Source: a bacterium (GTDB lineage Bacteria > Armatimonadota > Chthonomonadetes > Chthonomonadales > JAMCWF01). Taken from it: DNA of 64,000 nt. The notes under the pieces are model-generated. The model saw only the letters and a list, made by a program, of their open reading frames with translations, was not told where the DNA came from and did not search any database. The translations under genes were made by a program, and so were the position numbers. Positions 17,293-63,447 of the stretch are shown here, piece after piece (the stretch's first letter is position 1; every line of letters starts with the position of its first letter). The stretch is taken from NCBI GenBank assembly GCA_021842405.1, contig JAKBZR010000001.1, positions 18,865 to 82,864 on the forward strand, given 5' to 3'.

Positions 17293-17322
17293 TTGACACC
17301 GCTTCTCATCACCACGTATAAT
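17293..17322 (+). promoter_or_regulatory. sigma70-type promoter of the his operon
   Basis: TTGACA (17293-17298), 18-nt spacer, TATAAT (17317-17322); both hexamers are perfect consensus. Confidence 0.65.
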
Positions 17323-17350
17323 GTGCGTGATATATGGCGGGGGTAAAGTT

Positions 17351-18634: not shown

Positions 18635-18635
18635 A

Positions 18636-19277
18636 ATGGATAAACAACCGGAATCATTTTCATTTGGGGGAAGAGCGCGGGAACCACGAAAAGCGACAAT
18701 TCAACGCAAAACCGGCGAGACGGAAATTACACTCACCCTAAATTTAGATGGTCAGGGAGAGTGCCAGGCGAGCACCGGCATTGGCTTCTTCGACCACATG
18801 CTGCAGCACATCGCCAAGCACGGCAGCTTCGATCTGATGGTAAAGGCGAGCGGGGACCTCCACGTTGACGACCATCATTTGGTTGAGGACGTGGGCATCT
18901 GCTTGGGGCGCGCCGTCTCGCAGGCATTAGGCGATCGCAGCGGCATTCAGCGATACGGGGATGCGATCATCCCGATGGATGAGGCGTTAATTTTGTGTGT
19001 GGTGGATATCAGCGGGCGGGGGTTGTTGGTTGAAAATATCGAGACGCCGGCCACTCGGATCGGCATATTTTCGGCCGAGATGGCGCCCGAATTTTTTCGG
19101 GCGGTGGCTTCCAATGCGGGATTAACCCTTCATTTCCGCCAACTGGCCGGCCGCAACAGCCATCACATAATAGAGGGCGCTTTCAAGGCGTTCGCTCGGG
19201 CCTTGAAAGAGGCGGTAAAATGGGTGGGTGATCAGGGCGTTCCCTCCACGAAGGGCATTATCGAGTCGCAGGGCTAG
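18636..19277 (+). CDS. hisB: imidazoleglycerol-phosphate dehydratase
   Basis: ATG at 18636 one nt after the hisD stop; motifs TGETEI and GIGFFDHMLQHIAKHG; the track's upstream extension overlaps hisD. Confidence 0.9.
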   Translation: MDKQPESFSFGGRAREPRKATIQRKTGETEITLTLNLDGQGECQASTGIGFFDHMLQHIAKHGSFDLMVKASGDLHVDDHHLVEDVGICLGRAVSQALGDRSGIQRYGDAIIPMDEALILCVVDISGRGLLVENIETPATRIGIFSAEMAPEFFRAVASNAGLTLHFRQLAGRNSHHIIEGAFKAFARALKEAVKWVGDQGVPSTKGIIESQG

Positions 19278-19332
19278 ACGATTTCAATCGCGGTTGTTTA
19301 TTAAAGTGAAACTCAGTCGGTATAGTTAAACT

Positions 19333-19965
19333 ATGATTGCAATTTTGGACTATGGGATCGGGAATTTAAAGAGCGTGGAGCGGGCGCTTACCGCGGTCGG
19401 CGCCGAGGCGAAGGTAACCTCGAGCCTCAAAGAGATCAGAGAGGCCGACAAGCTGGTGGTACCGGGCGTGGGGGCGTTCGGCGCTTGCGTAACGGGAATG
19501 AAGCGTCAAGAATTCGTGGAGCCGCTGATCGAGGCCATTGAAAAAGGGAAGCCGGTGCTGGGAATCTGCGTGGGGCTTCAAATGCTGTTTGATGAGAGTG
19601 AGGAGCTGGGGCCGACGCCAGGTTTAGCGATACTGCCGGGCCGGGTGGTGCGATTTTTCCCATCCGATGCGCCGTCCGAAACGGTACAGGGGTTGAAGGT
19701 GCCTCATATCGGCTGGAATACGCTGGAGGTTACACGCCCTAATAAGCTGTTTAAAGGCATACCGGATGGGGCGCGGGTCTATTTTGTGCACTCTTACTTT
19801 GCACAACCCTCAAATCCCAGTGACATCTTAGCCAACAGTCATTACGGGATCAACTTCTGTTGCGCAGTCCAACACGAGAACCTTTTCGCGACCCAGTTTC
19901 ACCCGGAGAAGAGCGGCGCGGTTGGCTTGCGAATCTTGAGTAATTTCATACGACTGGTAAATTAA
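19333..19965 (+). CDS. hisH: imidazole glycerol phosphate synthase, glutamine amidotransferase subunit
   Basis: 210 aa; MIAILDYGIGNL start, catalytic Cys in GICVGLQ, HSY and FHPEKS motifs. Confidence 0.9.
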   Translation: MIAILDYGIGNLKSVERALTAVGAEAKVTSSLKEIREADKLVVPGVGAFGACVTGMKRQEFVEPLIEAIEKGKPVLGICVGLQMLFDESEELGPTPGLAILPGRVVRFFPSDAPSETVQGLKVPHIGWNTLEVTRPNKLFKGIPDGARVYFVHSYFAQPSNPSDILANSHYGINFCCAVQHENLFATQFHPEKSGAVGLRILSNFIRLVN

Positions 19966-20030
19966 CGGCACCGGCAAAAATTAGCGAGCCGCGCCGTTTT
20001 GATTCATTGAGGGCACGGGTGGAGCGTTGA

Positions 20031-20768
20031 ATGGAAGTTATACCGGCGATTGATATAAAGGGCGGTAAGTGCGTTCGGCTGCGGCAGGGACAGTTTACGG
20101 AGGTTATGACCTACTCCGAGGATCCGGTCGAAATGGCGCTGAAATGGCAGTTGGAGGGTGCGGCCCGCCTGCATGTGGTGGATCTGGATGGCGCCCGCGT
20201 GGGATCGCCGCAAAACGTAAATACGGTGCGCCAGATCATTCGCCGAGTCCGGATACCGGTGCAGTTGGGCGGTGGGATACGAAATGCCGAAATTATCGAG
20301 CGGATGCTTCGGATCGGGGTGGATCGTGTGATTTTAGGGACGGCGGCGGCGATGGATCGCTCGATTGCAGCCAATCTGTTGACCCTATACAGCTCCCATC
20401 TATTGATCGGAATTGACGCTCGGGATGGAAAGGTGGCGGTACGCGGCTGGCAAGAGCAATTAAACCGATCCGCCGTTCAATTCGCGCGTGACATAGAGAG
20501 CTTGGGCGCGCGGGGAATCATCTTTACCGACATTGCGCGGGATGGAATGCTCCAGGGACCGAACCTCACCTCACTACAGGAGATGCTCAATGCGGTTCGA
20601 ATTCCGGTGATCGCATCCGGTGGGGTGGCATCGTTGCAAGATATTCGGAAATTAAAGGAGATGAATTCTCCCAACTTGGCAGGTGTGATTGTGGGAAAAG
20701 CGTTATACGCTGAAACGCTCCGCTTAAGCGAGGCGATTGCGGTAACCGCTGATGGAACGTCGGGATAG
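20031..20768 (+). CDS. hisA: ProFAR isomerase
   Basis: 245 aa; VIPAIDIKGGKCVRLRQG start typical of HisA; follows hisH. Confidence 0.85.
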   Translation: MEVIPAIDIKGGKCVRLRQGQFTEVMTYSEDPVEMALKWQLEGAARLHVVDLDGARVGSPQNVNTVRQIIRRVRIPVQLGGGIRNAEIIERMLRIGVDRVILGTAAAMDRSIAANLLTLYSSHLLIGIDARDGKVAVRGWQEQLNRSAVQFARDIESLGARGIIFTDIARDGMLQGPNLTSLQEMLNAVRIPVIASGGVASLQDIRKLKEMNSPNLAGVIVGKALYAETLRLSEAIAVTADGTSG

Positions 20769-30565: not shown

Positions 30566-32032
30566 ATGAGTTTAGCCATCAACACAAATGTCTCGGCGCT
30601 GACGGCGTTGTACAATTTGAACCAAACCGAGCCAGCGCTGCAGACCGCGATCCAACGACTCTCTTCCGGCTTGCGAATTAACTCCGCGGCCGACGACCCG
30701 GCAGGCCTCATCATTTCGGACCACCTGCAATCCCAAATCGGCGGCCTTAATCAGGCGATCAACAATGCGCAAAACGGAGCGAACTTGATCAAGACGGCGG
30801 AGGCGGCGCTCGGCCAGGTCAGCTCGTTGCTGGACAGCATCAACCAGCTTGCGGTGAACGCGGCCAACACCGGCGTCAACGACACCAACATGGTGCAGGC
30901 CGACCAGTCTCAGATTCAATCGGCCATCCAGAGTATCGATTCAATCGCAACACAAACTCAGTTTGCGGACAAGAACCTGTTGGATGGGACTTCCGGCGTT
31001 ACTTCCAACGTGACGAATACGGCCGATATCGCCGGCATCAGCATCGGCAGCGCCTTTGACGGATACCAGACGGCGAGTGGAAACGTCACGATGACGGTAA
31101 CGACCGCCGCTGCGCGGGCTTCGGCCAACGGCTCCTCGGCGGTGGTAAGTTATGGATCGCTCTCCTCAACCATCGGCACGAGTGGAACGATTGTCATTAA
31201 CGGGGCATCCATCGCGGTTTCCTCAACTGACACGGTCCAAAGCTTGCTGGACAAGATCAACGCGGTGACGCAGCAAACCGGTGTTACCGCAAACTACGAT
31301 TCAACCAATCAAGTGATTGATCTAGCGCAATCAAACTACGGCGCCAACTTCAAAATCGTGGAGTCGGAGAGCGGCACATTCATTTTCGGCACTGCGGGAA
31401 CGTCGGTAGTGGGGACCAATGCCGTTGTCAGCGCTTCGGCTCAGGCCATGGTCAACGGCACTGCAACCACTGAAACCGTGACCTTTACCGGCGGCGTCAA
31501 TTCCACCGATTCCGGATTGTTGGTGAAAGACAGCGCCGGCAACTCGATCCTGTTGACCGAGGTAGGCAATTCAACATCTACCTCCAACGCGACCGTCGGA
31601 TCGGTCACAACCGGCAGCGTTCAGTTCCAGGTTGGAGCCAACTCGGGCCAAACGGTGAACATCTCGTTGGGGAATGTGCAGACCAATCAGCTTGGCACCA
31701 CCGCAGTAGCCGGCTTGAACCTGCGGACGATCAACGTTACGACTGCCCAAGGAGCCAGCGATGCGATGCAAGTGGTGCAACAGGCGCTCACGCAAGTTGA
31801 TACGCTTCGGGCGAAAATGGGGGCATTCGAGACCGATATTCTCAACAGCAATGTTCAGTCACTGGGTATTGCGGTTCAGAACTTGTCGGCATCGGAGTCG
31901 CAGATCCGCGATGCCAATATTCCGCAGGAGGTCATGAATATGACGAAGTACAGCATCCTGCAGCAATCCGGCATTTCGGTGCTTGCTCAAGCGAACAGCT
32001 TGCCGCAGGCATTGCTCAAACTGTTGCCCTAA
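30566..32032 (+). CDS. fliC: flagellin
   Basis: 488 aa; N-terminal MSLAINTNVSALTA...RLSSGLRINSAADDPAG and conserved C-terminal helix ...SILQQSGISVLAQANSLPQALLKLL; Ser/Thr-rich centre. Confidence 0.95.
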   Translation: MSLAINTNVSALTALYNLNQTEPALQTAIQRLSSGLRINSAADDPAGLIISDHLQSQIGGLNQAINNAQNGANLIKTAEAALGQVSSLLDSINQLAVNAANTGVNDTNMVQADQSQIQSAIQSIDSIATQTQFADKNLLDGTSGVTSNVTNTADIAGISIGSAFDGYQTASGNVTMTVTTAAARASANGSSAVVSYGSLSSTIGTSGTIVINGASIAVSSTDTVQSLLDKINAVTQQTGVTANYDSTNQVIDLAQSNYGANFKIVESESGTFIFGTAGTSVVGTNAVVSASAQAMVNGTATTETVTFTGGVNSTDSGLLVKDSAGNSILLTEVGNSTSTSNATVGSVTTGSVQFQVGANSGQTVNISLGNVQTNQLGTTAVAGLNLRTINVTTAQGASDAMQVVQQALTQVDTLRAKMGAFETDILNSNVQSLGIAVQNLSASESQIRDANIPQEVMNMTKYSILQQSGISVLAQANSLPQALLKLLP

Positions 32033-32059
32033 GCAAAATCGAAGCTCGCAGGGTAATTC

Positions 32060-32095
32060 GGCAGGCTCCATTCTATTCGGTAGGGGGAGCCTGCC
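32060..32095 (+). terminator. strong hairpin between fliC and fliD (no U-tract)
   Basis: GGCAGGCTCC (32060-32069) pairs with GGAGCCTGCC (32086-32095), 16-nt loop, 28 nt after the fliC stop. Confidence 0.35.
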
Positions 32096-32151
32096 ACATC
32101 AACACGAGGCGGCATTCAGCGGTTAATTGGATCAAGTGAAAGGAGTGAATT

Positions 32152-34479
32152 ATGGCAGGAAGCGGCATCACCTTTACCGGATTGAGCAGCGGGATTAACT
32201 GGCAATCCATCATTCAACAGATGCTGACGATGGCTCGCGCTCCGGAGAAGGTCTATCAACAGCAAGAACAAACCCTCATCAATGAGCAGACCGCGCTGGG
32301 GAAGTTTCAGGCCAGCTTGACCGGCCTTCAATCGGCCGCCAATTCACTCAACCAGCAAAATGCCTTCAATTTGGTGACGGCGAGCAGCAGCAACACTTCC
32401 ACCGCCACCGTATCCGCCAATGCAGGTGCTCAAACCGGAACTCACACCCTCGTGGTGAATCAACTTGCACAGGCGCAAAAACTGGGGTCCATCGCTCAAT
32501 CCAGCCAAACTAATCCGCTTGGCGTGAGCGGGCAAATCGTAATAAACGGCCATGCGATCACGGTGCAAAGCTCCGATACGCTGCAGACTCTGGCCGCAAA
32601 CATTAACAACGCCAATGCGGGCGTGACCGCCTCCATTATCGAAACCGCACCTAACTCCTACAATCTGATATTAACCGCCAACAACTCTGGAACGGCAAAC
32701 GAGATCAGCCTCTCCGATGTAGGGTCAGGAACCATTTTGCAGAGCACGCTCGGATTGATCGGCAGCGCCGAAGCGGTTGCAAACCCGATTACGAATGGCG
32801 CTGGATCGGCCCTCTTCAGTGACAGCTCCACCAGCATCGGCACCTTACTGGGGATGACATCGCCCACTTCAGGCACCATTCAGATCAACGGAACGAGCGT
32901 CTCCATTGATTTTTCGACCGATTCATTGACCAGCATCGCCAATAAAATCAACTCGGCCGGCATATCGGGAGTCAGCGCCGCCGTCATTGCGGTGACGAAT
33001 CCCACGACCGGTGCAGCCGAGCAGCAGCTTCAGATTACCGGCAGCACCACGCCGACCTTCACCGATTCCAATAATATTTTGGCGAATTTAGGGATACTGC
33101 AAAACAGCGTCAGCAGCTCGCAGCTTCAGGCGGCGCAAGATGCTAACTTCACATTGGATAATTTATCCATTACCCGAAGCAGCAATACTGTGACCGACGT
33201 CATTCCAAACGTTACCCTAAGCCTGTTATCGGGTGGGGGCGCAACGTCAAACATAACGGTCAATCCCGATACGAGCACCATGCAGCAAAATATCACCGGT
33301 TATGTGAATGCCTTTAACTCGATGGTGGATACCTTGCAATCGCAGGCGAACTATGATCCCACCACCAATGTAACGGGGCCGCTGTTTGGCGAAAGCACGA
33401 CCCAAAATGTACTCAATGAGCTGGTGAACCAGGCCACGTCCAGCGTTTCGGGGTTGCCCTCCACTTTGAGTACTTTAAGCCAGATCGGTATAACATTAGA
33501 TCAGAACGACCATCTGGTGGTTAACAGCGCGACGCTTTCCAATGCGCTGACGACCAATCCCAATGGCGTGGCAGCCCTGTTTCAGGCAACTGGTACCACC
33601 ACCGATTCGGCAATCACTTACGTGTATAGCACCAATAAAACACAGGACTCAGGCTCAGCGGGTTATGCCATCAATATCACCCAGCCGGCCACCCAAGCGA
33701 CCGCATCCGCCACCGTCGCCCAAACGAGCGCCAATTCCAGTCAAGAGACATTGACGTTCAGCGGAACCTTAATCGGCTCAAATCCCTATTCGATCACGTT
33801 GAATTCAACCAATACGCTGTCCGATACGGTTGCGCAGATCAATGCGGACCCAACATTATCGCCTCTGTTGACCGCCTCCATTGTAAGCGGTGAGCTGAGC
33901 CTGCAATCGAAGGCGTATGGATCGAGCGGAGATTTCACGGTCGTTTCAAGCCAAGCCGCCGCCTCCAACAACTCCGGCATCGGCACCACACCGATCAATG
34001 CAACCGGATTGGATGTAGCGGGCACTATCAATGGGGAGGCGGCAACCGGCAACGGCCAGTACCTGACCGGCAATTCAGGAAACGCAACCACCGATGGTCT
34101 TGAGATCAAGGTCAATACTACTGTGGCGGGATCGCATGGATCCATCGTATTCAGTCAGGGTGTGGCCGATCAAATGACCAACTTTATCAGCAGCGCCACC
34201 GATCCGCTATCCGGCTCGTTGACCGAGCTCAACAATTCATTAAATACGCAAGTCCAAGACATACAAAATACGATCCAAGATATTGAAAAACAGGTAGCGG
34301 CTGAAGCAACCATGTTACAGCAGGAGTTTGCCGCAATGGAGATGTCGGTTGCACAGCTTCAGCAAGCAGGAGCCAGCCTATCCTCATTGACCGGGCTGAG
34401 CTCGTCGAGCAGCTCCAGCGGCAGTGGGAGCTCGACCGGATCTTCGCCTTCATCATCGAGCTCGACCAGTGGTGGTTAA
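32152..34479 (+). CDS. fliD: flagellar filament capping protein
   Basis: 775 aa; FliD N-terminus GITFTGLSSGINWQSIIQQM; poly-Ser C-terminal tail. Confidence 0.9.
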   Translation: MAGSGITFTGLSSGINWQSIIQQMLTMARAPEKVYQQQEQTLINEQTALGKFQASLTGLQSAANSLNQQNAFNLVTASSSNTSTATVSANAGAQTGTHTLVVNQLAQAQKLGSIAQSSQTNPLGVSGQIVINGHAITVQSSDTLQTLAANINNANAGVTASIIETAPNSYNLILTANNSGTANEISLSDVGSGTILQSTLGLIGSAEAVANPITNGAGSALFSDSSTSIGTLLGMTSPTSGTIQINGTSVSIDFSTDSLTSIANKINSAGISGVSAAVIAVTNPTTGAAEQQLQITGSTTPTFTDSNNILANLGILQNSVSSSQLQAAQDANFTLDNLSITRSSNTVTDVIPNVTLSLLSGGGATSNITVNPDTSTMQQNITGYVNAFNSMVDTLQSQANYDPTTNVTGPLFGESTTQNVLNELVNQATSSVSGLPSTLSTLSQIGITLDQNDHLVVNSATLSNALTTNPNGVAALFQATGTTTDSAITYVYSTNKTQDSGSAGYAINITQPATQATASATVAQTSANSSQETLTFSGTLIGSNPYSITLNSTNTLSDTVAQINADPTLSPLLTASIVSGELSLQSKAYGSSGDFTVVSSQAAASNNSGIGTTPINATGLDVAGTINGEAATGNGQYLTGNSGNATTDGLEIKVNTTVAGSHGSIVFSQGVADQMTNFISSATDPLSGSLTELNNSLNTQVQDIQNTIQDIEKQVAAEATMLQQEFAAMEMSVAQLQQAGASLSSLTGLSSSSSSSGSGSSTGSSPSSSSSTSGG

Positions 34480-38095: not shown

Positions 38096-40708
38096 TTATA
38101 GATGCTTTCCCCCGAAGGGTGGGGCCGGTCGGTGGTACCTATGAATGATCCGACGGGGGCGATAGACACGGCGGCTTGCAGTCAGGGTTATTGAAGTGGA
38201 TACGCCCGGAGTTAAACTCACGCGGCGGGTTATCCCACTCCATATAAGTTGAACTGCCTCCGGATGTCCCGAGCGCACTTGTAACGCGAGCTGGGCCGGT
38301 GAAATGGAGGTGATGGTCAATCTGGTGGGCTTCTGACACCGAATCGTGACCGGAAACGGCGCCAAGGCTCCTCCTGGATTTTCCACGATGTAGTGGCTGG
38401 GGTTGGCCAACTGCTGGGCTCGGACCGCCAAACGGTAGGAGGTGACCGGCTCATTGTTTGCATAAGCGCTGAGCGAGGCGTTCCAGTCATACCGGCTGTA
38501 AGCATTTTGTTCTTTCCAATTCACCGAAGTGCTGAGGCGATGGATCAGATTGAAGGGGTCCTCCCAGTTTTCAACGATCAAGCTGCGCGCGCGTTCCGCT
38601 GCGATGTCGGCCAGGATGCGCACCGCAGGGGAGCCATCCGGTGATAATCGCACGGATGGAATTGGGCCGCTGATATGCTCCACCGCTACCCGATAGTTAA
38701 AGCCCGGTTTTTGCGGGATCAAGGTAGGGAGGTAGATTGATAACCAGCCGCTGTTTGGAACTACCGGTACGGTGATGGTGAAAAGATTATGGTCGGTTGC
38801 AATGTCTCGTAAGCTGACTACGATGGTGCACGGCGCCCCAGCCAGCGAGAGGTCAATTCGATTGATTCCGAATGAGCCGGTCGGAGCCGCATAGGATCGG
38901 AAAATCGGTTGATTGAGCGGGCGTGCGGCTACCCCGCTGGATGGAGAATCCATCACGCCGGTCGGTTCTTCAATGGTGGTCTCAAACCGTTGGAGGAGGG
39001 CGCTTAGGTTCTTGACATAAGGCCAATTGAACAAGGTCACGTAACGGCAGCCGGTTGCGTAGGCGGCCTGCAGGCAGCCAATGAGCTCATCCTCGTTCTT
39101 GGCGCCGGTACACTCAAGATTGGGTAAGGCGGTGCGACCGAACTCGCGCTCCTTTAACAACCAGGACAGCATCTCGGCTCCGTTCCAGTATTCCCCTCCG
39201 CTGCACCCATTTTCGACCGATCCCAGCTCGATCCCGGGGTGCCATTCGGTGACCTCTTTCAACGGATAGAGCGGCATCGCGTAGGGCTCGGTGTATATGT
39301 TGTCAATGGTTAATTTTGTGCGTGAAGTGCGATGGCTGTTGCTGCCGATTAGGATTGGATCGGGTTGGAGTGAGCTGATCATGTCGTTGACCAGCCGCTG
39401 CTGCTGGCGCGCCAAATTTTGATGTAGCCACCATCTCTCGCTCCCGGTCAGCCCATCCTTTGGGTTGAGCATCACGCCGTCTTTTGCGGCGGCCGCGACG
39501 GTGGCCGGGTTAAAATCGGCCTCCAGATGGGTTCTCGGTATTCCGTGATTGAAAGCGGTATAGCCATGGTCGTCAACGCCGTCCGCCCAGTAGATCGTCT
39601 CATCGCCGGTGGAGAGTGAATGGGGGAAAAGGCCGCCATCCTCGACCAAGGCCAGCCGATCACACTGCGACTGCCATGCTTTGAGCGCCGCCTTTAGCCG
39701 ATCGGCGCGGAATTCATTCAGGTGATGATTGTTAAAGGTCATCCATGGGGTATTCCCCCAAACGTTGGGCACCGATAGCCCGTAATGAACATCATAGCTT
39801 GATCCCAGTAGTTTCTGTAGGGCTGGAATGACGACTTGATTTTGGGGCGAGTAAACGATCTGCTGATAGGTGGGATCGGAGAAAGTACCCCCCAACCCAT
39901 CGGGAACGCCTTTAGGAACGCCCCCCCAGTCGGTTTCAAATCGGATTCGCAAGGGAAAATGGGCACGCATCGCAAGATCAGCAAGCTGGCCGATGTACTG
40001 TTGGTCCTGGCTATCGCTTCGAGCGCAGTAGTTAATGAGAACGGTCGCCTCCGGTTTAATGAATTGACTGGGAGGGATCGTCTTTTTTATGGCTGCCATC
40101 TCGCCGGCGTCAATTTGATAGCCGGATCCCTCGGGGGACAATAAACCGAGTCGCATGGAGAGGTCGTTCAAGGATGGGTGCCACTGATCGCCGGTGCCGC
40201 GATAGGCTCGGATCAGTGAGATGATCACCGGCGCTTCGGAATCGGGAAGAGCCTGAACTTCGATCGTGGTATGGGTGGTGCCGGGTTTCACCTCAAGGAA
40301 GATGGATTGCTTGATCCCGCCGCCCGGATCCAGGGAATAGGCGCGGTATCGCTCTTGATCGTTGATCAAAATCCGGTAGGATTTTATCTTTCCGTAGTCG
40401 GCGAGCGGCGTTGAGAAGACGAATTGAAGGGTGGCGCCGCGGGGGTTGGTCAGCAACTGCAAGGATAAGTCTCCCTTGCCGGGCTCAAGGGAGATGCCGG
40501 CCAAGGTGCGGTTGACGGTGCCGACCATCGCATGGCTGTGAAGGATCTCGGCATTATCGTAATGCACCGCATGGCGCCGCATAGAGGGCAATGAGGCTAG
40601 GTTCACCCAGTCGGTGACGTGGGGTTGTAGGGCGGCATTTGCCGGAGACCCGGCGTTAAGGAAAATGAGAAATGTGAGCGCAACCCCTATTAACTTCGGT
40701 GCTTTCAT
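38096..40708 (-). CDS. secreted protein of unknown function, 870 aa
   Basis: signal peptide MKAPKLIGVALTFLIFLNAGSPANA; long clean ORF; no recognisable family motif. Confidence 0.6.
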   Translation of the reverse strand: MKAPKLIGVALTFLIFLNAGSPANAALQPHVTDWVNLASLPSMRRHAVHYDNAEILHSHAMVGTVNRTLAGISLEPGKGDLSLQLLTNPRGATLQFVFSTPLADYGKIKSYRILINDQERYRAYSLDPGGGIKQSIFLEVKPGTTHTTIEVQALPDSEAPVIISLIRAYRGTGDQWHPSLNDLSMRLGLLSPEGSGYQIDAGEMAAIKKTIPPSQFIKPEATVLINYCARSDSQDQQYIGQLADLAMRAHFPLRIRFETDWGGVPKGVPDGLGGTFSDPTYQQIVYSPQNQVVIPALQKLLGSSYDVHYGLSVPNVWGNTPWMTFNNHHLNEFRADRLKAALKAWQSQCDRLALVEDGGLFPHSLSTGDETIYWADGVDDHGYTAFNHGIPRTHLEADFNPATVAAAAKDGVMLNPKDGLTGSERWWLHQNLARQQQRLVNDMISSLQPDPILIGSNSHRTSRTKLTIDNIYTEPYAMPLYPLKEVTEWHPGIELGSVENGCSGGEYWNGAEMLSWLLKEREFGRTALPNLECTGAKNEDELIGCLQAAYATGCRYVTLFNWPYVKNLSALLQRFETTIEEPTGVMDSPSSGVAARPLNQPIFRSYAAPTGSFGINRIDLSLAGAPCTIVVSLRDIATDHNLFTITVPVVPNSGWLSIYLPTLIPQKPGFNYRVAVEHISGPIPSVRLSPDGSPAVRILADIAAERARSLIVENWEDPFNLIHRLSTSVNWKEQNAYSRYDWNASLSAYANNEPVTSYRLAVRAQQLANPSHYIVENPGGALAPFPVTIRCQKPTRLTITSISPAQLALQVRSGHPEAVQLIWSGITRRVSLTPGVSTSITLTASRRVYRPRRIIHRYHRPAPPFGGKHL

Positions 40709-41110: not shown

Positions 41111-41950
41111 TTAGTTCTGCGGAGTCGGGGTAGTGTGCGCTGGGCTCTTGAGATTGGATTTTTGATGGGAACGGCTCTTCGGCTCAAGGTTGCCGATAGT
41201 CAGCTTGTGCCATGGCATCCATTTGGAATGGCCGTCCGCAAAGGCGACGAGATCGCCGCCGTGGTGGCGGGTTGCGTTATCGAGCCGCTCTTGGCCGTAT
41301 TTTTGGATTAATTTTTCAGCCGATTGGTTTTTCAGCCACATCAGCTTGTTGCCGGCATCGTTGGAGAAAGCAATCCCCGCTACGATCAAATCGGCCGATT
41401 TACCGGTGGGGTCGGGGAGTGAATTGACGAGTTGTGGCGCCGAATCGGCCAGCATCAACGTGTTTACGGGTTCCGGAATATTCGCCAAGCGGTTCCCTTT
41501 ATGTCCGCCGGTCAGCCACTCATTCAGCCCGAAGGAGACATAGTTTGCCGGGTGCGTCGGGCCGAACAGATCGTTCGCGCCGCTGTCGTCGCTGCAGCCG
41601 CTCCAGTAGTCGTTCCAGCGCAACACGTCGGCCGGATCGCGATATACCGAAACTTTGTCCGTGTAGGGATAGATCACATCGGTCCAGAAGGAGGCCGAAT
41701 CGCGAGGCGCCCCGTGGTTTCCCCCCTTGCAGTAGTATTGGATATTCCAGTAGGGGTAGAGCTCGTCGTAGTCTTGGTTGTACATCGCCATCGCAAGACT
41801 CAGTTGTTTGATGTTGGAAAGGGCGATGTCGGTCAGGCTTGTCTTCTTTTCCTGAGCGATGCCCGGCGCTAGGATCGCGGCTAACAGAGCGATGACCGCG
41901 ACCGCCACGCCGCCTTCAAATAGTGAAACCCTCTTGCGCTTCAATTTCAC
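41111..41950 (-). CDS. H-X9-DG (DUF1559) prepilin-like protein with degenerate N-terminal leader
   Basis: 279 aa; C-terminal HHGGDLVAFADGH gives H-X9-DG; N-terminus has a hydrophobic helix but VSLFEG instead of GFTLIE. Confidence 0.7.
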   Translation of the reverse strand: MKLKRKRVSLFEGGVAVAVIALLAAILAPGIAQEKKTSLTDIALSNIKQLSLAMAMYNQDYDELYPYWNIQYYCKGGNHGAPRDSASFWTDVIYPYTDKVSVYRDPADVLRWNDYWSGCSDDSGANDLFGPTHPANYVSFGLNEWLTGGHKGNRLANIPEPVNTLMLADSAPQLVNSLPDPTGKSADLIVAGIAFSNDAGNKLMWLKNQSAEKLIQKYGQERLDNATRHHGGDLVAFADGHSKWMPWHKLTIGNLEPKSRSHQKSNLKSPAHTTPTPQN

Positions 41951-42282: not shown

Positions 42283-42311
42283 TTGACGTGGGTATAGGGC
42301 GCGGGTATAAT
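42283..42311 (+). promoter_or_regulatory. sigma70-type promoter driving the T-box leader
   Basis: TTGACG (42283-42288), 17-nt spacer, TATAAT (42306-42311). Confidence 0.7.
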
Positions 42312-42335
42312 GGGCGGGTGAAGTAGGCTAATAAT

Positions 42336-42638
42336 GGGCTTTGAGGAAGAGGAGTAAGCGATGGGGGCGCCACAGAGAGCCGGGAAGGGTGAGAACCGGT
42401 GCAGCCGAAGTCGCTGAAATGGCTTCTGAGCCACCGACCTGAAACCACTGGATATTGTGGAATTAGGGTCGGCCGGGGGGCTCCCGTTACAGGGCTAGGG
42501 TGTAGAGTCTTCTCCCTTTAGACAGAACAGCACCCGTCGAGGTCGTCCCCGTGAGGGTTCGGCGAAGGTCAGGTGGTACCACGAGAAATACGCCTCTCGT
42601 CCTGGTCGCATCGGCGTTCGGGACGGGTGGCTTTTTTT
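42336..42638 (+). promoter_or_regulatory. T-box riboswitch leader, Specifier AUG (Met)
   Basis: Stem I base 42337-42340/42429-42432. Specifier loop: 5-prime AGGAGUA (42350-42356), 3-prime GAA-AUG-G (42416-42422). AG bay AGAGA 42374-42378; distal loop GGUGAGA 42388-42394; F box CCGUUA 42484-42489; T-box AGGUGGUACCACG 42571-42583. Terminator plus U7 follows. Confidence 0.85.
42592..42638 (+). terminator. intrinsic terminator of the T-box leader
   Basis: GCC-U-CUCGUCC (42592-42602) pairs with GGACGGG-U-GGC (42621-42631), followed by TTTTTTT (42632-42638). Confidence 0.75.
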
Positions 42639-42675: not shown

Positions 42676-43929
42676 ATGATGGCGAAAGTTTTAGGCTTGA
42701 GATGCCGCGAGTGCGGGCAAGAATACGGGGTGGTGCCCAACCACGTCTGCGAGATGTGCTTCGGCCCGCTCGAAGTACGTTACGATTACGAGGAGATTGG
42801 CCATCGAATTTCACGGACATCCATAGAATCCGGCCCGCCCAGCATCTGGCGCTATAAAGATCTGCTGCCCATTGACGGCGAGCCAACCGTGGGCTTGAAC
42901 TGCGGATGGACGCCGCTGGTTCGGGCGGAGCGTCTGGGGCGTGAGCTGGGGCTGCGCAATCTGTATCTAAAGAACGACAGCGTCAACCACCCAACCCTTT
43001 CTTTCAAAGACCGGGTCGTTTCGGTCGCCCTGACGAAGGCGCGGGAGTTCGGATATGAGGTGGTGGCCTGTGCCTCCACCGGCAATCTGGCCAACTCAGT
43101 AGCGGCCCACGCCGCCGAGGGCGGATTTACCAGCTACATTTTCATCCCTGACAATCTGGAGCTGGGTAAAGTGTTGGGCACGCTGGTCTACGGCGCGAAT
43201 GTGCTTGCGGTCAGCGGAAACTACGATGAAGTGAATCGGCTTTGCGCGGAGGCGGTCGGAAAGTACAATTGGGCATTCGTCAACATAAATTTAAGGCCCT
43301 ACTACGGTGATGGTAGCAAAACCTTCGGCTATGAGATCGCGGAGCAGTTGGGGTGGAGAGCGCCCGACCACATCGTGGTGCCTTGTGCGGGCGGTTCGCT
43401 GATGTCGAAGACCTATAAGGGGTTGAATGAGCTGGCGCAATTGGGCATAATTCCACCGGTTAAAACTAAAATGTACGCGGCGCAGGCCTCCGGTTGCTCA
43501 CCCATCACCACCGCCATTAAGACGAAATCCGATGTCATTCGCCCGGTTAAGCCCAATACCATCGCCAAGTCCATCGCAATCGGCAATCCGGCTGACGGTT
43601 ACTACGCGATCGATACGGTGCGAAAAAGCGGCGGCTGGGCCGAAGATGTAACCGACGATGAGGTTATTGAGGGCATCAAACTGCTGGGACGTACCGAAGG
43701 TATATTTACCGAGACGGCCGGCGGAGTGACGGTGGCGGTGGCCCGAAAGCTGGTGGAGCAGGGGCGTCTGCCGGCCGATGAACTGGTGGTGCTGGCCATT
43801 ACCGGCAACGGACTGAAAACGCAGGAGGCGGTTACCGACTGTCTATCCCAGCCGATGCACATTCAGCCCAACTTGACTTCGCTGAAAGAGGCGATCGGCC
43901 TCCAGCGTCAGGCGGCGTTGAGCGTCTGA
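42676..43929 (+). CDS. threonine synthase-like PLP enzyme with N-terminal zinc ribbon (candidate O-phosphohomoserine sulfhydrylase)
   Basis: CRECGQEY...CEMCFGPL zinc ribbon; PLP-lysine motif PTLSFKDRV; start placed after the leader terminator at the ATG following GGAGG (42668-42672). Confidence 0.8.
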   Translation: MMAKVLGLRCRECGQEYGVVPNHVCEMCFGPLEVRYDYEEIGHRISRTSIESGPPSIWRYKDLLPIDGEPTVGLNCGWTPLVRAERLGRELGLRNLYLKNDSVNHPTLSFKDRVVSVALTKAREFGYEVVACASTGNLANSVAAHAAEGGFTSYIFIPDNLELGKVLGTLVYGANVLAVSGNYDEVNRLCAEAVGKYNWAFVNINLRPYYGDGSKTFGYEIAEQLGWRAPDHIVVPCAGGSLMSKTYKGLNELAQLGIIPPVKTKMYAAQASGCSPITTAIKTKSDVIRPVKPNTIAKSIAIGNPADGYYAIDTVRKSGGWAEDVTDDEVIEGIKLLGRTEGIFTETAGGVTVAVARKLVEQGRLPADELVVLAITGNGLKTQEAVTDCLSQPMHIQPNLTSLKEAIGLQRQAALSV

Positions 43930-43944
43930 TTGAATGGTCGCAAA

Positions 43945-43965
43945 CTGGGGAATTGAACTAATTCG
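43945..43965. repeat. possible solo remnant of a type-1 terminus
   Basis: ctggggaattgaactaattcg resembles ctcagagaattgaactcattcg at 17241-17262. Confidence 0.3.
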
Positions 43966-44041
43966 ACGGATTGGAGCGATCATTTCATTCGTCCCATCTG
44001 TCCTATTTCCTATAGTCCTATATCGAGGAGGTTAAACATAA

Positions 44042-44317
44042 ATGCCGGTAACCGTATTGATTCCAACACCGCTCCGGAAACTAACCAATGAACAGGATAG
44101 CGTCGAAACGTCCGCATCCACAATCGCCGGCTTAATCCAGGATCTCAATCAACAGTTTCCCGGATTGGGTGCCCGATTGACCGACGAGACCGGAGCATTA
44201 CGACGCTTTGTCAATATCTATGTGAACGAGGAGGATATTCGTTTTTTGAAGGGAACGGAGACGCCGCTTGCCGACGGCGATTCGGTGTCTATCGTGCCAT
44301 CTATTGCGGGCGGTTAA
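44042..44317 (+). CDS. CysO/MoaD/ThiS-family sulfur carrier protein
   Basis: 91 aa ending AGG; strongly resembles my recollection of M. tuberculosis CysO (VTV.IPT.LR ... RFVNIYVNEEDIRF ... ADGDSVSI.P..AGG). Confidence 0.85.
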   Translation: MPVTVLIPTPLRKLTNEQDSVETSASTIAGLIQDLNQQFPGLGARLTDETGALRRFVNIYVNEEDIRFLKGTETPLADGDSVSIVPSIAGG

Positions 44318-44366: not shown

Positions 44367-44618
44367 ATGGCTTTAATTCAGGTTCACATAACGGCGACGA
44401 GAGACCAAGTTAGCGAGCCGATTTTATACCGGCTGGCGAAGGACTTCAATGTGGTGACCAACGTGCGCCGCGCACAGGTTGAGGAAGATTATGCATTTGT
44501 GGCGGTGGATATCGAAGGTTCTCTGCCCGAGGTGCAGCGCGCCATCGCCTGGCTTCAGACGACCGGTTTGCATATTGATCCAAAGGAACGATCGGTCAGC
44601 GATCGCGGAAACCTGTAG
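44367..44618 (+). CDS. stand-alone NIL-domain protein
   Basis: 83 aa from the ATG after GAGGGGA; C-terminal QRAIAWLQTTGLHIDP resembles the MetN C-terminal NIL region (AAIAWLQEHHVKVEV, from memory). Confidence 0.65.
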   Translation: MALIQVHITATRDQVSEPILYRLAKDFNVVTNVRRAQVEEDYAFVAVDIEGSLPEVQRAIAWLQTTGLHIDPKERSVSDRGNL

Positions 44619-58944: not shown

Positions 58945-60657
58945 GTGATTCCGTTGCTTACGTTGAAGCGAACGTTGCTTGGCGCCATACTACTGCAAGA
59001 AGGAATGATTACGACTCAGCAGCTTGAGGTCGCACTAGCGGAACAGGTGCGCTCCGAGAACAAGAAGCTGGGTGAGATTATGATCGGCCTTCGATACATC
59101 ACCGAAGCGGAGCTGATGAAGGCGCTGGAAAAGCAACTGGGTTGTCCGGCGGTTGATCTCAACGAGAATCCGCCCGATCCGAGCGTGCTTGGCAGCATTC
59201 CCAGCGAGTTTGCATTGAGAAATCAGTTGCTGCCGCTGCGCACCCATGACCACACCCTGCGCGTTGCAATGGCGGATCCACTCGATGTGGCGACCATTGA
59301 TGACCTGGAGCTTTTAACCGGTTTGCAAATCGAGCCGGTCTTGGCCAGCCCCACCGAGATCCGAAGGGCGGTTGAGCAAGCCTATATGACTCAGATGATT
59401 CAGGGCGCGCAGGATTCGGAGCAGGCAGCCGAAGCGGAAGAGAGCCTCGACGTCGCCGATTTGCAAAAGATGGCGCGAGAAGAGCTCGTCATCCAGATGG
59501 TAAACCTGATTATAAACCAGGCCATCCAGGATCGCGCTTCCGATATTCATATCGAGCCGTTTGAGAAAGAGCTCCGCGTTCGATACCGGGTGGATGGCGT
59601 TCTCCACGAGGTCAATTCTCCGCCCAAACGGCTTCATCCAGCCATCGTCTCCCGCATCAAAATATTGAGCGATATGAACATTGCGGAACGCCGGCTGCCA
59701 CAAGACGGTCGCATGCGCATCCGTTCAGCCAGCCGCCAAATAGACCTTCGTGTCTCTTCCATCCCAACCCTGTTTGGGGAAAGCGTCGTTATGCGAATAC
59801 TGGATAAACAGACAGCGATGCTGGGCTTAACCGAGCTGGGTATGAACGAAGTGATGTTTGATCGGTTTTCTCGGCTTATCAAAGAGCCGCACGGCATCAT
59901 TTTGGTTACCGGACCGACCGGCTCCGGAAAAACCACCACGCTCTACGCCGCCATCAGCGAAATCTACTCGGTTGAGAAAAAAATCATGACGATCGAAGAT
60001 CCGGTTGAGTACCAGCTTAACGGGGTAAACCAGATTCAGGTGCACCCACAGATCGGCTTGAGCTTCGCCAACGGCCTCCGGCACATCGTCCGGCAGGACC
60101 CCGATATCGTGATGGTGGGTGAAATCCGGGATGCTGAAACGGTGGAAATTGCCATTCACGCCGCTTTGACCGGTCACTTGGTTTTTTCAACGCTGCACAC
60201 CAATGATGCGGCCGGTGCAATCAGCCGCTTGCTGGATATGGGTGCCGAACCTTATTTGGTTGCCTCTTCGCTGATAGGGACCATCGCCCAACGCCTGGTC
60301 CGCTTGAATTGCCCTCGTTGCTCGGAGCCGATTGAGGAGTCCCCCAGCGCATTGAAAGAGATCGGCATTGATCGGGGCGATATCTTAAAGAATCCGCTGC
60401 GAGCCGGCCGCGGTTGCCCTGAATGCCGAGGGGTCGGTTATCGAGGACGATCCGGCATTTATGAGATGATGACGATTGATGATAATCTCCGGCAAATGAT
60501 CGTGAATCGAAAGCCCAGCAACCAGATGAAACAGTACGCCCAAAAAGCCCAAACGATGACCTCCCTGTTGCAAGATGGCCGTGACCGGGTTCTGGCTGGA
60601 CAGACAACCATACAAGAGGTTCTGCGCATTTGCCAGCGCGAGGAGTTTGATGTCTAA
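58945..60657 (+). CDS. gspE: type II secretion / type IV pilus assembly ATPase (GspE/PilB family)
   Basis: 570 aa; N-terminal T2SSE_N-like domain, Walker A GPTGSGKTTT, tetracysteine CPRC...CPEC. Confidence 0.9.
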   Translation: MIPLLTLKRTLLGAILLQEGMITTQQLEVALAEQVRSENKKLGEIMIGLRYITEAELMKALEKQLGCPAVDLNENPPDPSVLGSIPSEFALRNQLLPLRTHDHTLRVAMADPLDVATIDDLELLTGLQIEPVLASPTEIRRAVEQAYMTQMIQGAQDSEQAAEAEESLDVADLQKMAREELVIQMVNLIINQAIQDRASDIHIEPFEKELRVRYRVDGVLHEVNSPPKRLHPAIVSRIKILSDMNIAERRLPQDGRMRIRSASRQIDLRVSSIPTLFGESVVMRILDKQTAMLGLTELGMNEVMFDRFSRLIKEPHGIILVTGPTGSGKTTTLYAAISEIYSVEKKIMTIEDPVEYQLNGVNQIQVHPQIGLSFANGLRHIVRQDPDIVMVGEIRDAETVEIAIHAALTGHLVFSTLHTNDAAGAISRLLDMGAEPYLVASSLIGTIAQRLVRLNCPRCSEPIEESPSALKEIGIDRGDILKNPLRAGRGCPECRGVGYRGRSGIYEMMTIDDNLRQMIVNRKPSNQMKQYAQKAQTMTSLLQDGRDRVLAGQTTIQEVLRICQREEFDV

Positions 60658-61873
60658 CTTTCGATATAAAGCAGTGGACCGAACCGGCACTTCGATTGCA
60701 GGGGTAATTGACGGCCGCGATCATGCCGAAGCTGCGGTAAAGGTGCGCGCGCTCGGTTATTACCCGGTCGAGATAAAATCGGCTAATGCCGCTGAAATAT
60801 CACGCAATGGAAATGCGGCCGCTCCCGCTGGAAAAAAGAAAATAACCCGCCTTGAAATCCTTCTTTTCACCCGAGAGCTGGCCGATCTACTCGATGCGGG
60901 GTTGCCGATGGATCGCGCGTTGACTGTTTTAATCGAGCAGAGCGATTCGGAAGGGCTTATTGGGATGGTTAAGCGGCTGCAGGGAGAGATCCGGGCCGGA
61001 CAGCCACTATCCGCTGCACTGGGGCTGTATCCTCAAGCATTTCCACCGCTCTATGCCAATATGATTCGAGCCGGTGAAATCAGCGGCCAGTTGCCAACCG
61101 TAATGACCCAGTTGGCCGAATTTATGGAGAAAGAGCAAATTCGCCGCAGCCAGATTATTGCCGCCCTTACCTATCCGATGGTGCTGATCTGTATTGCTAC
61201 CTTAGCCGTCACCTTTTTATTGACCTTTGTGATCCCAAAGCTCACCGCCGTTTTTAAAAGTCTGGGCGCCGCGCTCCCACTGCCCACTCAAATGCTGCTC
61301 GCAATTGCGGCGGTGGTTACGCATTACGGCTGGTTGATTGGGATCGGCATCGTGGTGATTGTGGTTGGTTTTCGAAGGTGGGTGCAAACACCATCCGGCC
61401 GCCGCTCGTTCGACCATTTTCGAATCAACGCACCGCTCTTCGGCGGGTTGGTGCGGAAGATCGTCAGCGCGCGCTATGTGCGGACGCTCGGAACGCTGTT
61501 GTCAGGTGGAGTGCCGATACTCGATTCGCTGGAGATCTCATCCACCGCAGTAGGGAATACGGTCATGTCGGATGCCGTTCTATCCGCCCGATCGGGGGTG
61601 CGGCAAGGTGAAACGCTTTCCAGCGCAATGGAGAAGACCAATCAATTTTTACCGATCGTAGTCCATATGACCGGTGTCGGGGAAGAGACAGGCAAACTGG
61701 GCGGTATGCTGCTCAGAACGGCCGGCACGCTCGATTTCGAAGTGGACAATGCAATGCGAAGATTAACCAGCCTGATTGAGCCGCTGGTTGTCTTACTGAT
61801 GGGCGGTTTTGTCGGCTTTATCGTTTTATCCATTCTGTTGCCGATCTTCCAGGCTGATACAATCGTGAAATGA
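60650..61873 (+). CDS. gspF: type II secretion / type IV pilus platform protein (GspF/PilC family)
   Basis: MSNFRYKAVDRTG start overlapping the gspE stop (ATGTCTAA); duplicated T2SSF domains with three TM segments. Confidence 0.9.
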   Translation: MSNFRYKAVDRTGTSIAGVIDGRDHAEAAVKVRALGYYPVEIKSANAAEISRNGNAAAPAGKKKITRLEILLFTRELADLLDAGLPMDRALTVLIEQSDSEGLIGMVKRLQGEIRAGQPLSAALGLYPQAFPPLYANMIRAGEISGQLPTVMTQLAEFMEKEQIRRSQIIAALTYPMVLICIATLAVTFLLTFVIPKLTAVFKSLGAALPLPTQMLLAIAAVVTHYGWLIGIGIVVIVVGFRRWVQTPSGRRSFDHFRINAPLFGGLVRKIVSARYVRTLGTLLSGGVPILDSLEISSTAVGNTVMSDAVLSARSGVRQGETLSSAMEKTNQFLPIVVHMTGVGEETGKLGGMLLRTAGTLDFEVDNAMRRLTSLIEPLVVLLMGGFVGFIVLSILLPIFQADTIVK

Positions 61874-61935
61874 CCGCGCAATTGATTAAGCCATCCATTG
61901 TGGGGTCGTGTGAAGTGAAAGGTAAGGAGAAAGGT

Positions 61936-62388
61936 ATGCAAGCATCAATCTCAACTCGGCGCGGCCGCGCCCAAAGCGCATTCACGTTGATTGAATTGCT
62001 GGTCGTGATCATTATTTTAGCCATATTGGCGGCGGTGGTTATCCCGCGCGTCATCGGTAGAACCGAGGACGCCCGAGTCGCCAAAGCGATGACGGATATC
62101 GCCACATTTCGAAGTTTGCTGGAGACTTACAAAGCCGACACCGGCACCTATCCCACCACCTCACAAGGACTGCAGTCCCTGGTCGTCAATCCCGGCGTGC
62201 AGGGTTGGAACGGCCCCTACATCGTGGGTGGAACGCTGCCGCTCGATCCATGGGGACATCCATATATCTATAAATCACCGGGCGACCATGATCCCGACTA
62301 CGACATCATCTCAGCCGGGCCGGACGGACAGGCCGGTGACAGCGATGATATTGATAGTTGGAACCTGCAAAAGAACAGCGTTAAATAG
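61936..62388 (+). CDS. gspG: major pseudopilin GspG
   Basis: SAFTLIELLVVIIILAILAAVV prepilin N-terminus; GspG core DPWGHPYIYKSPG...DIISAGPDG; ATG at 61936 behind AAGGAGA. Confidence 0.9.
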   Translation: MQASISTRRGRAQSAFTLIELLVVIIILAILAAVVIPRVIGRTEDARVAKAMTDIATFRSLLETYKADTGTYPTTSQGLQSLVVNPGVQGWNGPYIVGGTLPLDPWGHPYIYKSPGDHDPDYDIISAGPDGQAGDSDDIDSWNLQKNSVK

Positions 62389-62419
62389 TTATAAAATGAG
62401 ATGATTCGGGGAGCGGGAT

Positions 62420-62986
62420 TTGCTGGGGCTTGAAACGCCGAAATATCGTTACGGTTTTACCTTGATCGAGATGCTGGTGCTGATTATTATTATGGCGATC
62501 GTCTCCAGCTTACTCATTCCGAGGTTTCAAGGGGCATGGCAGCACACGCAGTTTCGGTGGGAAAAAGAGTCGGTGATCAGCTTTTTTGCCGATGCGCGTC
62601 GAACCGCAACCAGTTACGGAGGGGATGTCGTTGTCATTTATTATCCACAACAAAATAGGTTGGAAGCGAACCTCGACCCCTCATCCCTGCCAACCGATCT
62701 GCCTTCCGCGATGTTGTCGCATAATCAGCCGGCCGAAATCCCGAGAACCCTGATGCTGGGTGATGCATTTCAAATTACAAACTGGAATACGATTCCGGGT
62801 ATTTATTCGACCGGCGCCGCCACCGGTAACGGTGCATTATCATCGAACAATAATCCCTACCAAATTGTATTTCATGCTGACGGTTCCAGTGATGATTTGG
62901 GTTTTACCTTCTTAAGCCAATACGGTTACCAAAGTCAGTTTGAGTTAAACGGGATAACCGGTCATCTCAGCGAGATAAAACGGTAA
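62420..62986 (+). CDS. minor pseudopilin (GspH-like)
   Basis: 188 aa; YGFTLIEMLVLIIIMAIV prepilin motif. Confidence 0.7.
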   Translation: MLGLETPKYRYGFTLIEMLVLIIIMAIVSSLLIPRFQGAWQHTQFRWEKESVISFFADARRTATSYGGDVVVIYYPQQNRLEANLDPSSLPTDLPSAMLSHNQPAEIPRTLMLGDAFQITNWNTIPGIYSTGAATGNGALSSNNNPYQIVFHADGSSDDLGFTFLSQYGYQSQFELNGITGHLSEIKR

Positions 62987-63447
62987 TGGATAATCCTAAA
63001 TTAAAAAGGAGCCGTCGAAACGGCGGTTTCACCCTGATAGAAATGATAGTAGCGACCGTTCTGCTAGCTATCGGGGTAGTGGCATCTCTGTTGTCATACG
63101 CCGCCGCGGCACGGCTTTCCGTCTCCGCCATCAACCGCACAACGGCCACTTTTTTAGCTCAACAGCAGCTCACGAGCCTGCAGGATAATCCAAACGGCCT
63201 TCCGACCGGCAATCAAAATGGGGATTTCGGGCCGCAATACCCGGGGTTTACCTGGCAGTCCGAAGTCGACTCGAGTGAATTCCCTTCATTGGATCAAGTA
63301 CGATTGGTGGTGCAGTGGCAATCGGGATTGTTGACCCATTCGGTCGAGCTCGATACCTATTTGCCCACCAGCCAACCGGGCTCAACCACTTCGACAAGCA
63401 CGCCCAGTGCAACAGGCGGAAATAGCAATGGACCTCGAACGCCGTAA
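62986..63447 (+). CDS. minor pseudopilin (GspI-like)
   Basis: 153 aa; GGFTLIEMIVATVLLAIG prepilin motif; start overlaps the previous stop. Confidence 0.7.
   Translation: MDNPKLKRSRRNGGFTLIEMIVATVLLAIGVVASLLSYAAAARLSVSAINRTTATFLAQQQLTSLQDNPNGLPTGNQNGDFGPQYPGFTWQSEVDSSEFPSLDQVRLVVQWQSGLLTHSVELDTYLPTSQPGSTTSTSTPSATGGNSNGPRTP

Follow-up and report, generated by a model that had tools for sequence, protein, structure and literature searches.

Does a threonine synthase-like gene that stands beside a gene for a small sulfur carrier protein serve the synthesis of threonine, or does it serve the synthesis of homocysteine? The question is raised by a 64-kb stretch of DNA from an Armatimonadota bacterium (referred to here as the window), in which two such genes lie downstream of an RNA leader. 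An earlier note on this DNA had proposed that the enzyme, a homolog of ThrC, uses a carrier thiocarboxylate and gives homocysteine. Comparative evidence from the clade of the enzyme, its signature residues, its synteny, its RNA control, and the occurrence of a canonical thrC in the same operon elsewhere supports this proposal. We read the promoter, a methionine (Met) T-box, and three genes, termed metM-like, metO-like, and NIL here, as a probable methionine-starvation-induced operon for a thiocarboxylate route to homocysteine, and we put the probability of this reading at about 80%. The locus would then be a well-supported further case of the MetM/MetO pathway described in 2024, the known chemistry of which is left unchanged. 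Its new points are modest: the replacement of a riboswitch by a T-box, the association with NIL (including MetO-NIL fusions), and the presence of thrC and homK in the same operon at some related loci.

The pathway is known from Streptomyces albulus (Hasebe et al. 2024, Appl Environ Microbiol 90:e01247-24). As outlined in the GapMind preprint (bioRxiv 10.1101/2024.10.14.618325), O-phosphohomoserine is converted to homocysteine by way of the carrier MetO, the activating enzyme (E1) MoeZ, the hydrolase Mec, and the ThrC homolog MetM, and MetM is often misannotated as threonine synthase. The account in PMC12172450 adds that S. albulus metM has an S-adenosylmethionine (SAM) riboswitch. Between them, these two sources confirm the existence of the Streptomyces MetM/MetO pair that the earlier note had named.

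The metM-like gene has a GGAGG sequence 4 nt 5' of its start codon. The earlier note had described a ThrC-type pyridoxal phosphate (PLP)-lysine motif and an N-terminal CxxC...CxxC ribbon in the product of this gene, and both are present at the coordinates it gave. The motif, HPTLSFKDRVV, occupies residues 105 to 115; the PLP lysine is K111 within SFKDR, and it aligns with K61 of ThrC. The ribbon, CRECG...CEMC, is a four-cysteine element (CxxC-11-CxxC) formed by C10, C13, C25, and C28. The protein matched Pfam PALP (E = 3e-71) and passed the NCBIfam equivalog model for thrC, TIGR00260 (284.7 bits; cut-off, 167.1). It fell slightly under the cut-off of PRK08197 (290.9 bits; cut-off, 303) and well below those of the CysK/CysM models (cysKM, 34 bits with a cut-off of 344; PRK10717, 36.6 bits with a cut-off of 387). 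Its closest solved structures were all threonine synthases (E = 1e-57 to 1e-49), which align from residue 54 onward, with approximately 35 to 40% identity over residues 54 to 408. The best protein matches came from the Armatimonadota family Chthonomonadaceae: a 100% identical protein is encoded on one 2.9-kb ENA contig, and the protein of Chthonomonas calidirosea is 74% identical. Identity was 57 to 60% with cyanobacterial homologs and 52 to 54% with a Micromonosporaceae homolog. Searches for the Streptomyces MetM itself, made with the Micromonosporaceae homolog as the query and with an actinobacterial profile, returned only Micromonosporaceae, and a tblastn search of plasmids returned only a Nonomuraea record.

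The placement of the enzyme relative to characterized threonine synthases had been left to a phylogeny by the earlier note. In a neighbor-joining distance tree of 135 sequences, built without support values, the window protein lay apart from them. The solved ThrCs and the second ThrC copies found inside some of the operons (see below) formed one clade, and the window protein fell inside a compact MetO-linked clade that also held the Micromonosporaceae protein. At 16 positions, 83 of 83 MetO-linked sequences share one residue where the ThrCs uniformly have a different one, and the window protein has the MetM-type residue at each: V114, V115, L138, E162, Y183, N187, N205 (an insertion), R207, Y210, K245, S299, D307, G308, G349, G350, and T382. 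The ThrC counterparts, in Thermus thermophilus numbering, are G64, M65, T88, A113, F134, L138, N157, R160, A194, A240, S248, W249, S290, A291, and D323. The window protein and its MetO-linked homologs thereby have V, V, L, R, Y, D, G, and T in place of ThrC G64, M65, T88, N157, R160, S248, W249, and D323, respectively. We take T88 and R160 to belong to the phosphate site that steers water addition in ThrC, an assumption for which a literature search found no support. A deeper group of ThrC-like proteins with the Cys4 ribbon (36 to 42% identical) lacks both the MetM-type signature and the complete ThrC-type one, with, for example, A138, P162, F187, N207, and D382; its representatives are P0176, P0186, P0192, P0199, P0202, P0203, P0218, P0220, and others.

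The second gene begins 112 nt 3' of the metM-like gene on the same strand. The earlier note's description of its product as a 91-aa carrier ending in AGG and very similar to CysO of Mycobacterium tuberculosis proved accurate. CysO is the best solved relative (3dwg_C; full length, E = 2.6e-23, 53% identity), and the two strings given for it in the earlier note, RFVNIYVNEEDIRF and ADGDSVSIVPSIAGG, were found. The protein also matched Pfam ThiS (E = 1.8e-18). Its C terminus reads SIAGG and is followed immediately by the stop codon; because it ends exactly at Gly-Gly, the window carrier should need no C-terminal trimming.

The pairing of the two genes is widespread. We surveyed one genome per GTDB species, searching with an alignment of diverse homologs, and obtained 80 loci (56 to 66% identity), in which genes were delimited by simple open reading frame (ORF) calls. 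The loci span Nitrospinota, Nitrospirota, Planctomycetota, Cyanobacteria, Verrucomicrobiota, Chloroflexota, Actinomycetota, Acidobacteriota, Desulfobacterota-type metagenome-assembled genomes (MAGs), Aquificaceae, and others. Six-frame phmmer placed a MetO-like ORF 3' of the enzyme gene, in the same orientation, in 72 of the 80 loci, which rules out chance adjacency of the carrier and enzyme genes. The carrier ended exactly at GG in 42 loci and had one to seven residues beyond GG in 21; in 8 it was part of a fusion of the form MetO-AIAGG-linker-NIL. At one further locus (L016, 5226-6293), it had a C-terminal extension of 265 aa beginning SLSEDEVERYSR, which, judged from motif and length alone, looks like the N terminus of a MoeB/ThiF-type E1. 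Seven other Armatimonadota loci encode proteins 72 to 81% identical to the window protein. The enzyme gene is followed by a gene for a 91- to 96-aa ThiS-family protein in all seven (eight of eight with the window), and six of them also have the NIL gene. Clustering of neighboring genes revealed a ThiF/MoeB-type E1 in 17 and a Prok-JAB (JAMM) protein in 11 of the 80 loci, as well as a PALP cluster in 25 loci that comprises CysK/CysM-like genes and three second copies of thrC. Almost all of these E1, JAMM, and PALP genes are on the strand of the enzyme gene.

The second thrC copies bear directly on the function of the metM-like gene. At three loci of the Thermodesulfovibrio/Nitrospirota type (L008, 148-4756; also L011 and L015), the metM-like gene, the metO-like gene, NIL, a canonical thrC, and homK form a single same-strand string. 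The second ThrC scores 333 bits on TIGR00260 and groups with the solved ThrCs. The homK product scores 578 bits on TIGR02535 (proposed homoserine kinase), a family that has been reported as HomK, forming O-phosphohomoserine (GapMind preprint). Two ThrC-family paralogs beside an O-phosphohomoserine-forming enzyme appear best explained as a branch point. With a canonical thrC and homK in the operon at these three loci, threonine synthesis in at least some genomes falls, judging from gene content, to an enzyme other than the metM-like one. We predict that the metM-like gene of the window encodes a MetO-thiocarboxylate-dependent homocysteine synthase.

The control region of the operon points toward methionine as well (Table 1). 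The T-box match starts 21 nt downstream of the promoter; it is full length with respect to the model and is the sole Rfam element at the gathering threshold in the 64 kb. A Met T-box had been named in the earlier note, and the alignment agrees: in the cmscan output, AUG (Met) at 42419-42421 falls on the columns of the specifier codon, and a purine and then the closing helix come after it. The T-box core, GGUGGUACCACG, is at 42572-42583. The terminator fold has a free energy of -34.9 kcal/mol (z = -3.0), a terminator scan matches the same place, and the 5' arm of the terminator overlaps the 3' half of the T-box antiterminator. By its predicted parts, the leader is a complete transcription-attenuation switch reading tRNA-Met.

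Table 1. Features of the operon and its leader, in window coordinates
Feature	Position	Strand	Evidence
Sigma-70-like promoter, TTGACG-17-TATAAT	42283-42311	+	11 of 12 consensus positions
T-box leader	42332-42607	+	Rfam RF00230, 98.5 bits (gathering score 93), E = 1.9e-20
Intrinsic terminator (hairpin, 42592-42631; U7, 42632-42638)	42592-42638	+	Fold, terminator scan
metM-like gene, 417 aa, start MMAKVLGL	42676-43929	+	PALP, TIGR00260, clade, signature residues
metO-like gene, 91-aa ThiS/MoaD-fold sulfur carrier	44042-44317	+	Pfam ThiS, CysO similarity, synteny
NIL-domain gene, third in operon	44352/44367-44618	+	Pfam PF09383, homolog starts, synteny

A T-box also lies directly 5' of the ortholog in each of the seven other Armatimonadota loci (62 to 97 bits, E = 5e-11 to 3e-20). 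All eight leaders, that of the window included, read GAA-AUG-R at the specifier, and the sequences of the flanking helices vary among them, as judged by eye. No T-box was found upstream of the enzyme gene in the non-Armatimonadota loci with Rfam at the gathering threshold. A SAM-I riboswitch precedes the enzyme gene on the same strand in 30 of 69 scanned loci, nearly always within 250 nt of the start. With a Met T-box in Armatimonadota and SAM-I elsewhere, the family is therefore under methionine-pathway control across phyla. Armatimonadota carry a tRNA-Met sensor where other phyla carry a SAM sensor, a clear case of regulatory replacement.

Three further observations concern the 5' regions of the surveyed loci. 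An Rrf2-family regulator gene lies directly 5' of the metM-like gene at L004 (3341-3805), L010, L013, and L046, and no SAM riboswitch was reported at these four loci. An Acidobacteriota MAG has a marginal match to the SAM_alpha riboswitch (L032, 2737-2810; 37.5 bits, gathering score 36) located 1.2 kb 5' of its metM-like gene. A marginal PYLIS_3 match in an Anaerolineae MAG (L078, 5418-5517) is probably spurious.

The identities of the genes and of the leader RNA, the clade of the enzyme, and the conservation of synteny and regulation are direct observations, and they fit the following scheme. Upon methionine starvation, uncharged tRNA-Met would pair with the AUG specifier and the UGGU bulge, the antiterminator would be stabilized, and RNA polymerase would pass the terminator. 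The carrier, already ending in Gly-Gly, would be adenylated and then converted to its C-terminal thiocarboxylate by a MoeZ/ThiF-type E1 encoded elsewhere in the genome. The ThrC-like enzyme, with Lys111 as its Schiff-base residue, would take O-phospho-L-homoserine and eliminate phosphate, and the carrier thiocarboxylate would attack C-gamma, in place of the attack of water at C-beta that leads to threonine. The resulting carrier-homocysteine adduct would release free homocysteine, possibly through a JAMM/Mec hydrolase, and the homocysteine would then be methylated to methionine. The NIL protein would be a functionally linked accessory, its most plausible role being feedback on MetO or MetM through the binding of methionine. 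We infer the substrate, the chemistry, the sulfur source, and the role of NIL in this scheme from homology and context.

Several points weigh against this scheme. The metM-like protein passes the thrC equivalog cut-off, all of the database sources seen label metM-like proteins threonine synthase, and the tie to the characterized S. albulus MetM is indirect, running through identities given in the literature and through common context. The 64-kb window has no E1, JAMM, homoserine kinase, or second thrC gene. The earlier note had already reported the lack of an E1-like activating enzyme in the window; a Pfam search of all ORFs of at least 150 aa found none, and six-frame phmmer searches over the 64 kb with ThiF, JAMM, HomK, CysK, and ThrC queries returned only the metM-like gene itself. 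In addition, a Microcystis protein that is encoded beside a metO-like gene and is 51.6% identical to S. albulus MetM was reported to act as a threonine synthase and threonine deaminase in vitro; with sulfide it gave no clear homocysteine formation, and methionine was not raised in vivo (PMC12172450). The thrC model score, together with the threonine synthases that are the nearest solved structures and the lack of another thrC within the window, could be taken to mean that the 417-aa protein is a plain threonine synthase and that the carrier serves another pathway, such as molybdopterin, thiamine, or cysteine synthesis. We regard this as very unlikely. A Met T-box (eight of eight Armatimonadota) or a SAM riboswitch (30 of 69 others) would be senseless for a threonine gene, the carrier is adjacent in 72 of 80 loci across phyla, and the protein belongs to a separate clade that has lost invariant ThrC residues; moreover, a canonical thrC is in the same operon at three loci.

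The Microcystis activities would also fit a bifunctional enzyme in the window, the only ThrC-family member of this genome, that makes threonine without charged carrier and homocysteine with MetO-thiocarboxylate. No second thrC came to light in the stretches of Armatimonadota genome that were covered. Control by tRNA-Met alone nevertheless speaks against a dual function, as do the replacement of ThrC-invariant residues, some of them presumed to bind phosphate, and the retention of a separate thrC alongside the metM-like gene in other lineages; a bifunctional enzyme is thus unlikely. The 53% identity of the carrier to M. tuberculosis CysO, and the CysK/CysM-like genes in many homologous neighborhoods (the 25-locus PALP cluster, which includes the three second thrC copies), raise a different possibility, a CysM/CysO-type cysteine synthase acting on O-phosphoserine. 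This identity was rejected on family scores, as the protein reaches only 34 to 37 bits on the cysK/cysM models, far under their cut-offs, versus 285 bits on the thrC model. Any CysK-like gene at these loci is distinct from the metM-like gene, and the controlling signals are methionine and SAM rather than cysteine, so that we give this option very little weight. Just as improbable in our view is the use of the enzyme and carrier to make a sulfur metabolite other than homocysteine, for example a thio-amino acid that enters a natural product. Cassettes of ThiS/MoaD, E1, and JAMM proteins are known in siderophore and thiosugar pathways (PMC1779556), and a match to 4n6e was obtained, but the operon lies among housekeeping genes (tilS and ftsH) with no biosynthetic cluster nearby, its distribution is broad, and its regulation is by Met or SAM. 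Homocysteine synthesis from O-phosphohomoserine and a carrier thiocarboxylate is the reading that we retain. On this reading, the threonine synthase labels would cause metabolic reconstructions of Armatimonadota and many other phyla to miss a methionine route, and the same labels may lead to over-calling of threonine synthesis or of methionine auxotrophy.

Comparison with known systems places the window operon closest to S. albulus MetM/MetO, to the extent that the available accounts describe it. Both have a ThrC-homologous PLP enzyme with a GG-type ThiS/MoaD carrier, an RNA switch of the methionine pathway, and misannotation as threonine synthase. The S. albulus pathway relies on the E1 MoeZ and the JAMM hydrolase Mec, and the window operon would need counterparts of these two, the genes for which need not adjoin. 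The window differs from what is described for S. albulus in its tRNA-Met T-box instead of a SAM riboswitch, its NIL gene, its Armatimonadota host, and a carrier that ends exactly at GG. The M. tuberculosis CysM/CysO/Mec/MoeZ system has a carrier of the same length and with the same AGG end, and it works on the same principle, in which an O-phospho-amino acid and a protein thiocarboxylate are the substrates of a fold-type II PLP enzyme; the window enzyme, however, is in the ThrC branch and not the CysK/CysM branch, and it would be expected to convert O-phosphohomoserine to homocysteine. In Wolinella succinogenes, a protein thiocarboxylate reportedly gives the sulfur for homocysteine in the HcyS/HcyF/HcyD/MetY system (Krishnamoorthy and Begley 2011), and a JAMM protease is said to process the carrier. 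That system is said to employ a fold-type I O-acetylhomoserine sulfhydrylase (MetY) and O-acetylhomoserine, in contrast to the ThrC-like enzyme and O-phosphohomoserine proposed here. Canonical ThrC (PDB 2zsj, 6cgq, 1uim, and 2d1f) shares the fold, the PLP-lysine motif, and probably the substrate with the window protein, which is set apart by its additional N-terminal Cys4 ribbon, its separate clade, its 16 substitutions, and its different partners and regulation.

A third gene of the operon had escaped the earlier note. The NIL ORF starts 35 to 50 nt after the metO-like gene and encodes 83 aa from ATG 44367 or 88 aa from the mechanical ORF start, GTG 44352; the ATG is more likely the true start because homologs begin with MA or MP at its position. 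The product is a single NIL domain (PF09383; 43.3 bits, cut-off 24; E = 3.4e-11). Among solved structures, it is closest to the C2 domain of Escherichia coli MetN (3dhx/3dhw), a weak match with an E value of 1e-3. In E. coli MetN, L-methionine is bound across the C2 dimer, and N295 is required (PMC6233128). The residue of the window NIL protein that aligns with N295 is likewise Asn, which is not invariant among operon-linked NIL proteins, and the Ala aligned with A299 of MetN is invariant in the NIL family alignment. Unlike the C2 (NIL) domain of the MetN transporter ATPase, the window NIL is free-standing and outside any transporter.

The recurrence of NIL argues for a connection with MetM/MetO. 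A NIL ORF or domain is present in 38 of the 80 loci, with eight in-frame MetO-GG-NIL fusions, and NIL is for this reason tied to the pathway. By analogy with MetN, we tentatively suggest that the NIL protein may be a third working part of the MetM/MetO pathway that binds methionine or homocysteine and gates the carrier or the synthase, adding post-translational feedback on top of the RNA switch. In the lineages with fusions, the MetO-GG-NIL precursor would have to be cut after Gly-Gly before the carrier is charged, in the manner of ubiquitin fusion precursors. A NIL-domain protein is also linked genetically to homocysteine formation in the DUF39 pathway of methanogens and Desulfovibrio (MA1821/MA1822), in which a NIL-ferredoxin protein is needed for homocysteine synthesis (PMC5764234). 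That pathway differs in that a NIL-ferredoxin fusion and DUF39 act on aspartate semialdehyde, whereas here NIL occurs alone or fused to MetO and accompanies a ThrC-like enzyme. Because the same domain is also required in this unrelated pathway, NIL may be a general homocysteine/methionine recognition module of sulfur-amino-acid synthesis. The accounts that we found of MetM/MetO and of prokaryotic ubiquitin-like systems do not mention NIL. The NIL partner, the MetO-NIL fusions, and the apparent MetO-E1 fusion all point to specific interactions.

The fusions, in which a short linker follows AIAGG, are found at L004 (5288-5803), L010, L013, L017, L020, L024, L046, and L050. Their Gly-Gly is internal and would need exposing by cleavage, and a JAMM gene is nearby in five of the seven full-length fusion loci. 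NIL also varies in its number of repeats. In most Armatimonadota, NIL is a tandem double domain of 175 to 178 aa (L001, 8391-8927; L083, 6881-7408; L084, 6980-7507; L087, 6043-6576; and L088, 5475-6002), which could be a mimic of the C2 dimer. A single NIL domain is encoded in the window (44367-44618) and at L086 (5637-5894), the closest long-contig relative of the window, and in the alignment the single domain resembles a hybrid of the N-terminal half of repeat 1 and the C-terminal half of repeat 2. The carrier and NIL genes of C. calidirosea (L001) are separated by a gene for a 211-aa double zinc-ribbon protein (7708-8343). A thiamine cluster (thiD, thiC, thiO, thiG, thiS, and thiE) comes next on the opposite strand, and no thiamine pyrophosphate riboswitch was found for it in the stretch covered at the Rfam gathering threshold.

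In the window, the operon is followed by tilS and ftsH, neither of which is conserved as a neighbor in relatives. Upstream and divergent from the T-box promoter region is a gene for a 279-aa protein (41111-41950, - strand). The N terminus of this protein is hydrophobic and prepilin-like, and its C-terminal HHGGDLVAFADGH motif calls DUF1559/H-X9-DG proteins to mind; it had no Pfam match at E = 1e-4. The same was true of ORFs of 870 aa (38096-40708, - strand), which has a signal-peptide-like N terminus, and 654 aa (1322-3286, - strand). A NifS/IscS-type cysteine desulfurase is encoded at 58-1257 (+ strand; TIGR03402, 441 bits, under the cut-off of 531). This enzyme could supply sulfur for charging the carrier, but its gene is 41 kb from the operon and probably has no connection with it. 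The threonyl-tRNA synthetase gene (8829-10568, - strand) has no T-box upstream at the gathering threshold. A histidine biosynthesis cluster (17321-20768, + strand) contains hisD, hisB, hisH, and hisA; the mechanical hisB ORF overlaps hisD by approximately 140 nt, and the true hisB start is therefore probably later. The regions 30566-34479 and 58945-63447 (both + strand) encode flagellin and FliD and a type II secretion/type IV pilus-like cluster, the latter with a T2SSE ATPase, T2SSF, T2SSG, and two further N-methyl pseudopilins.

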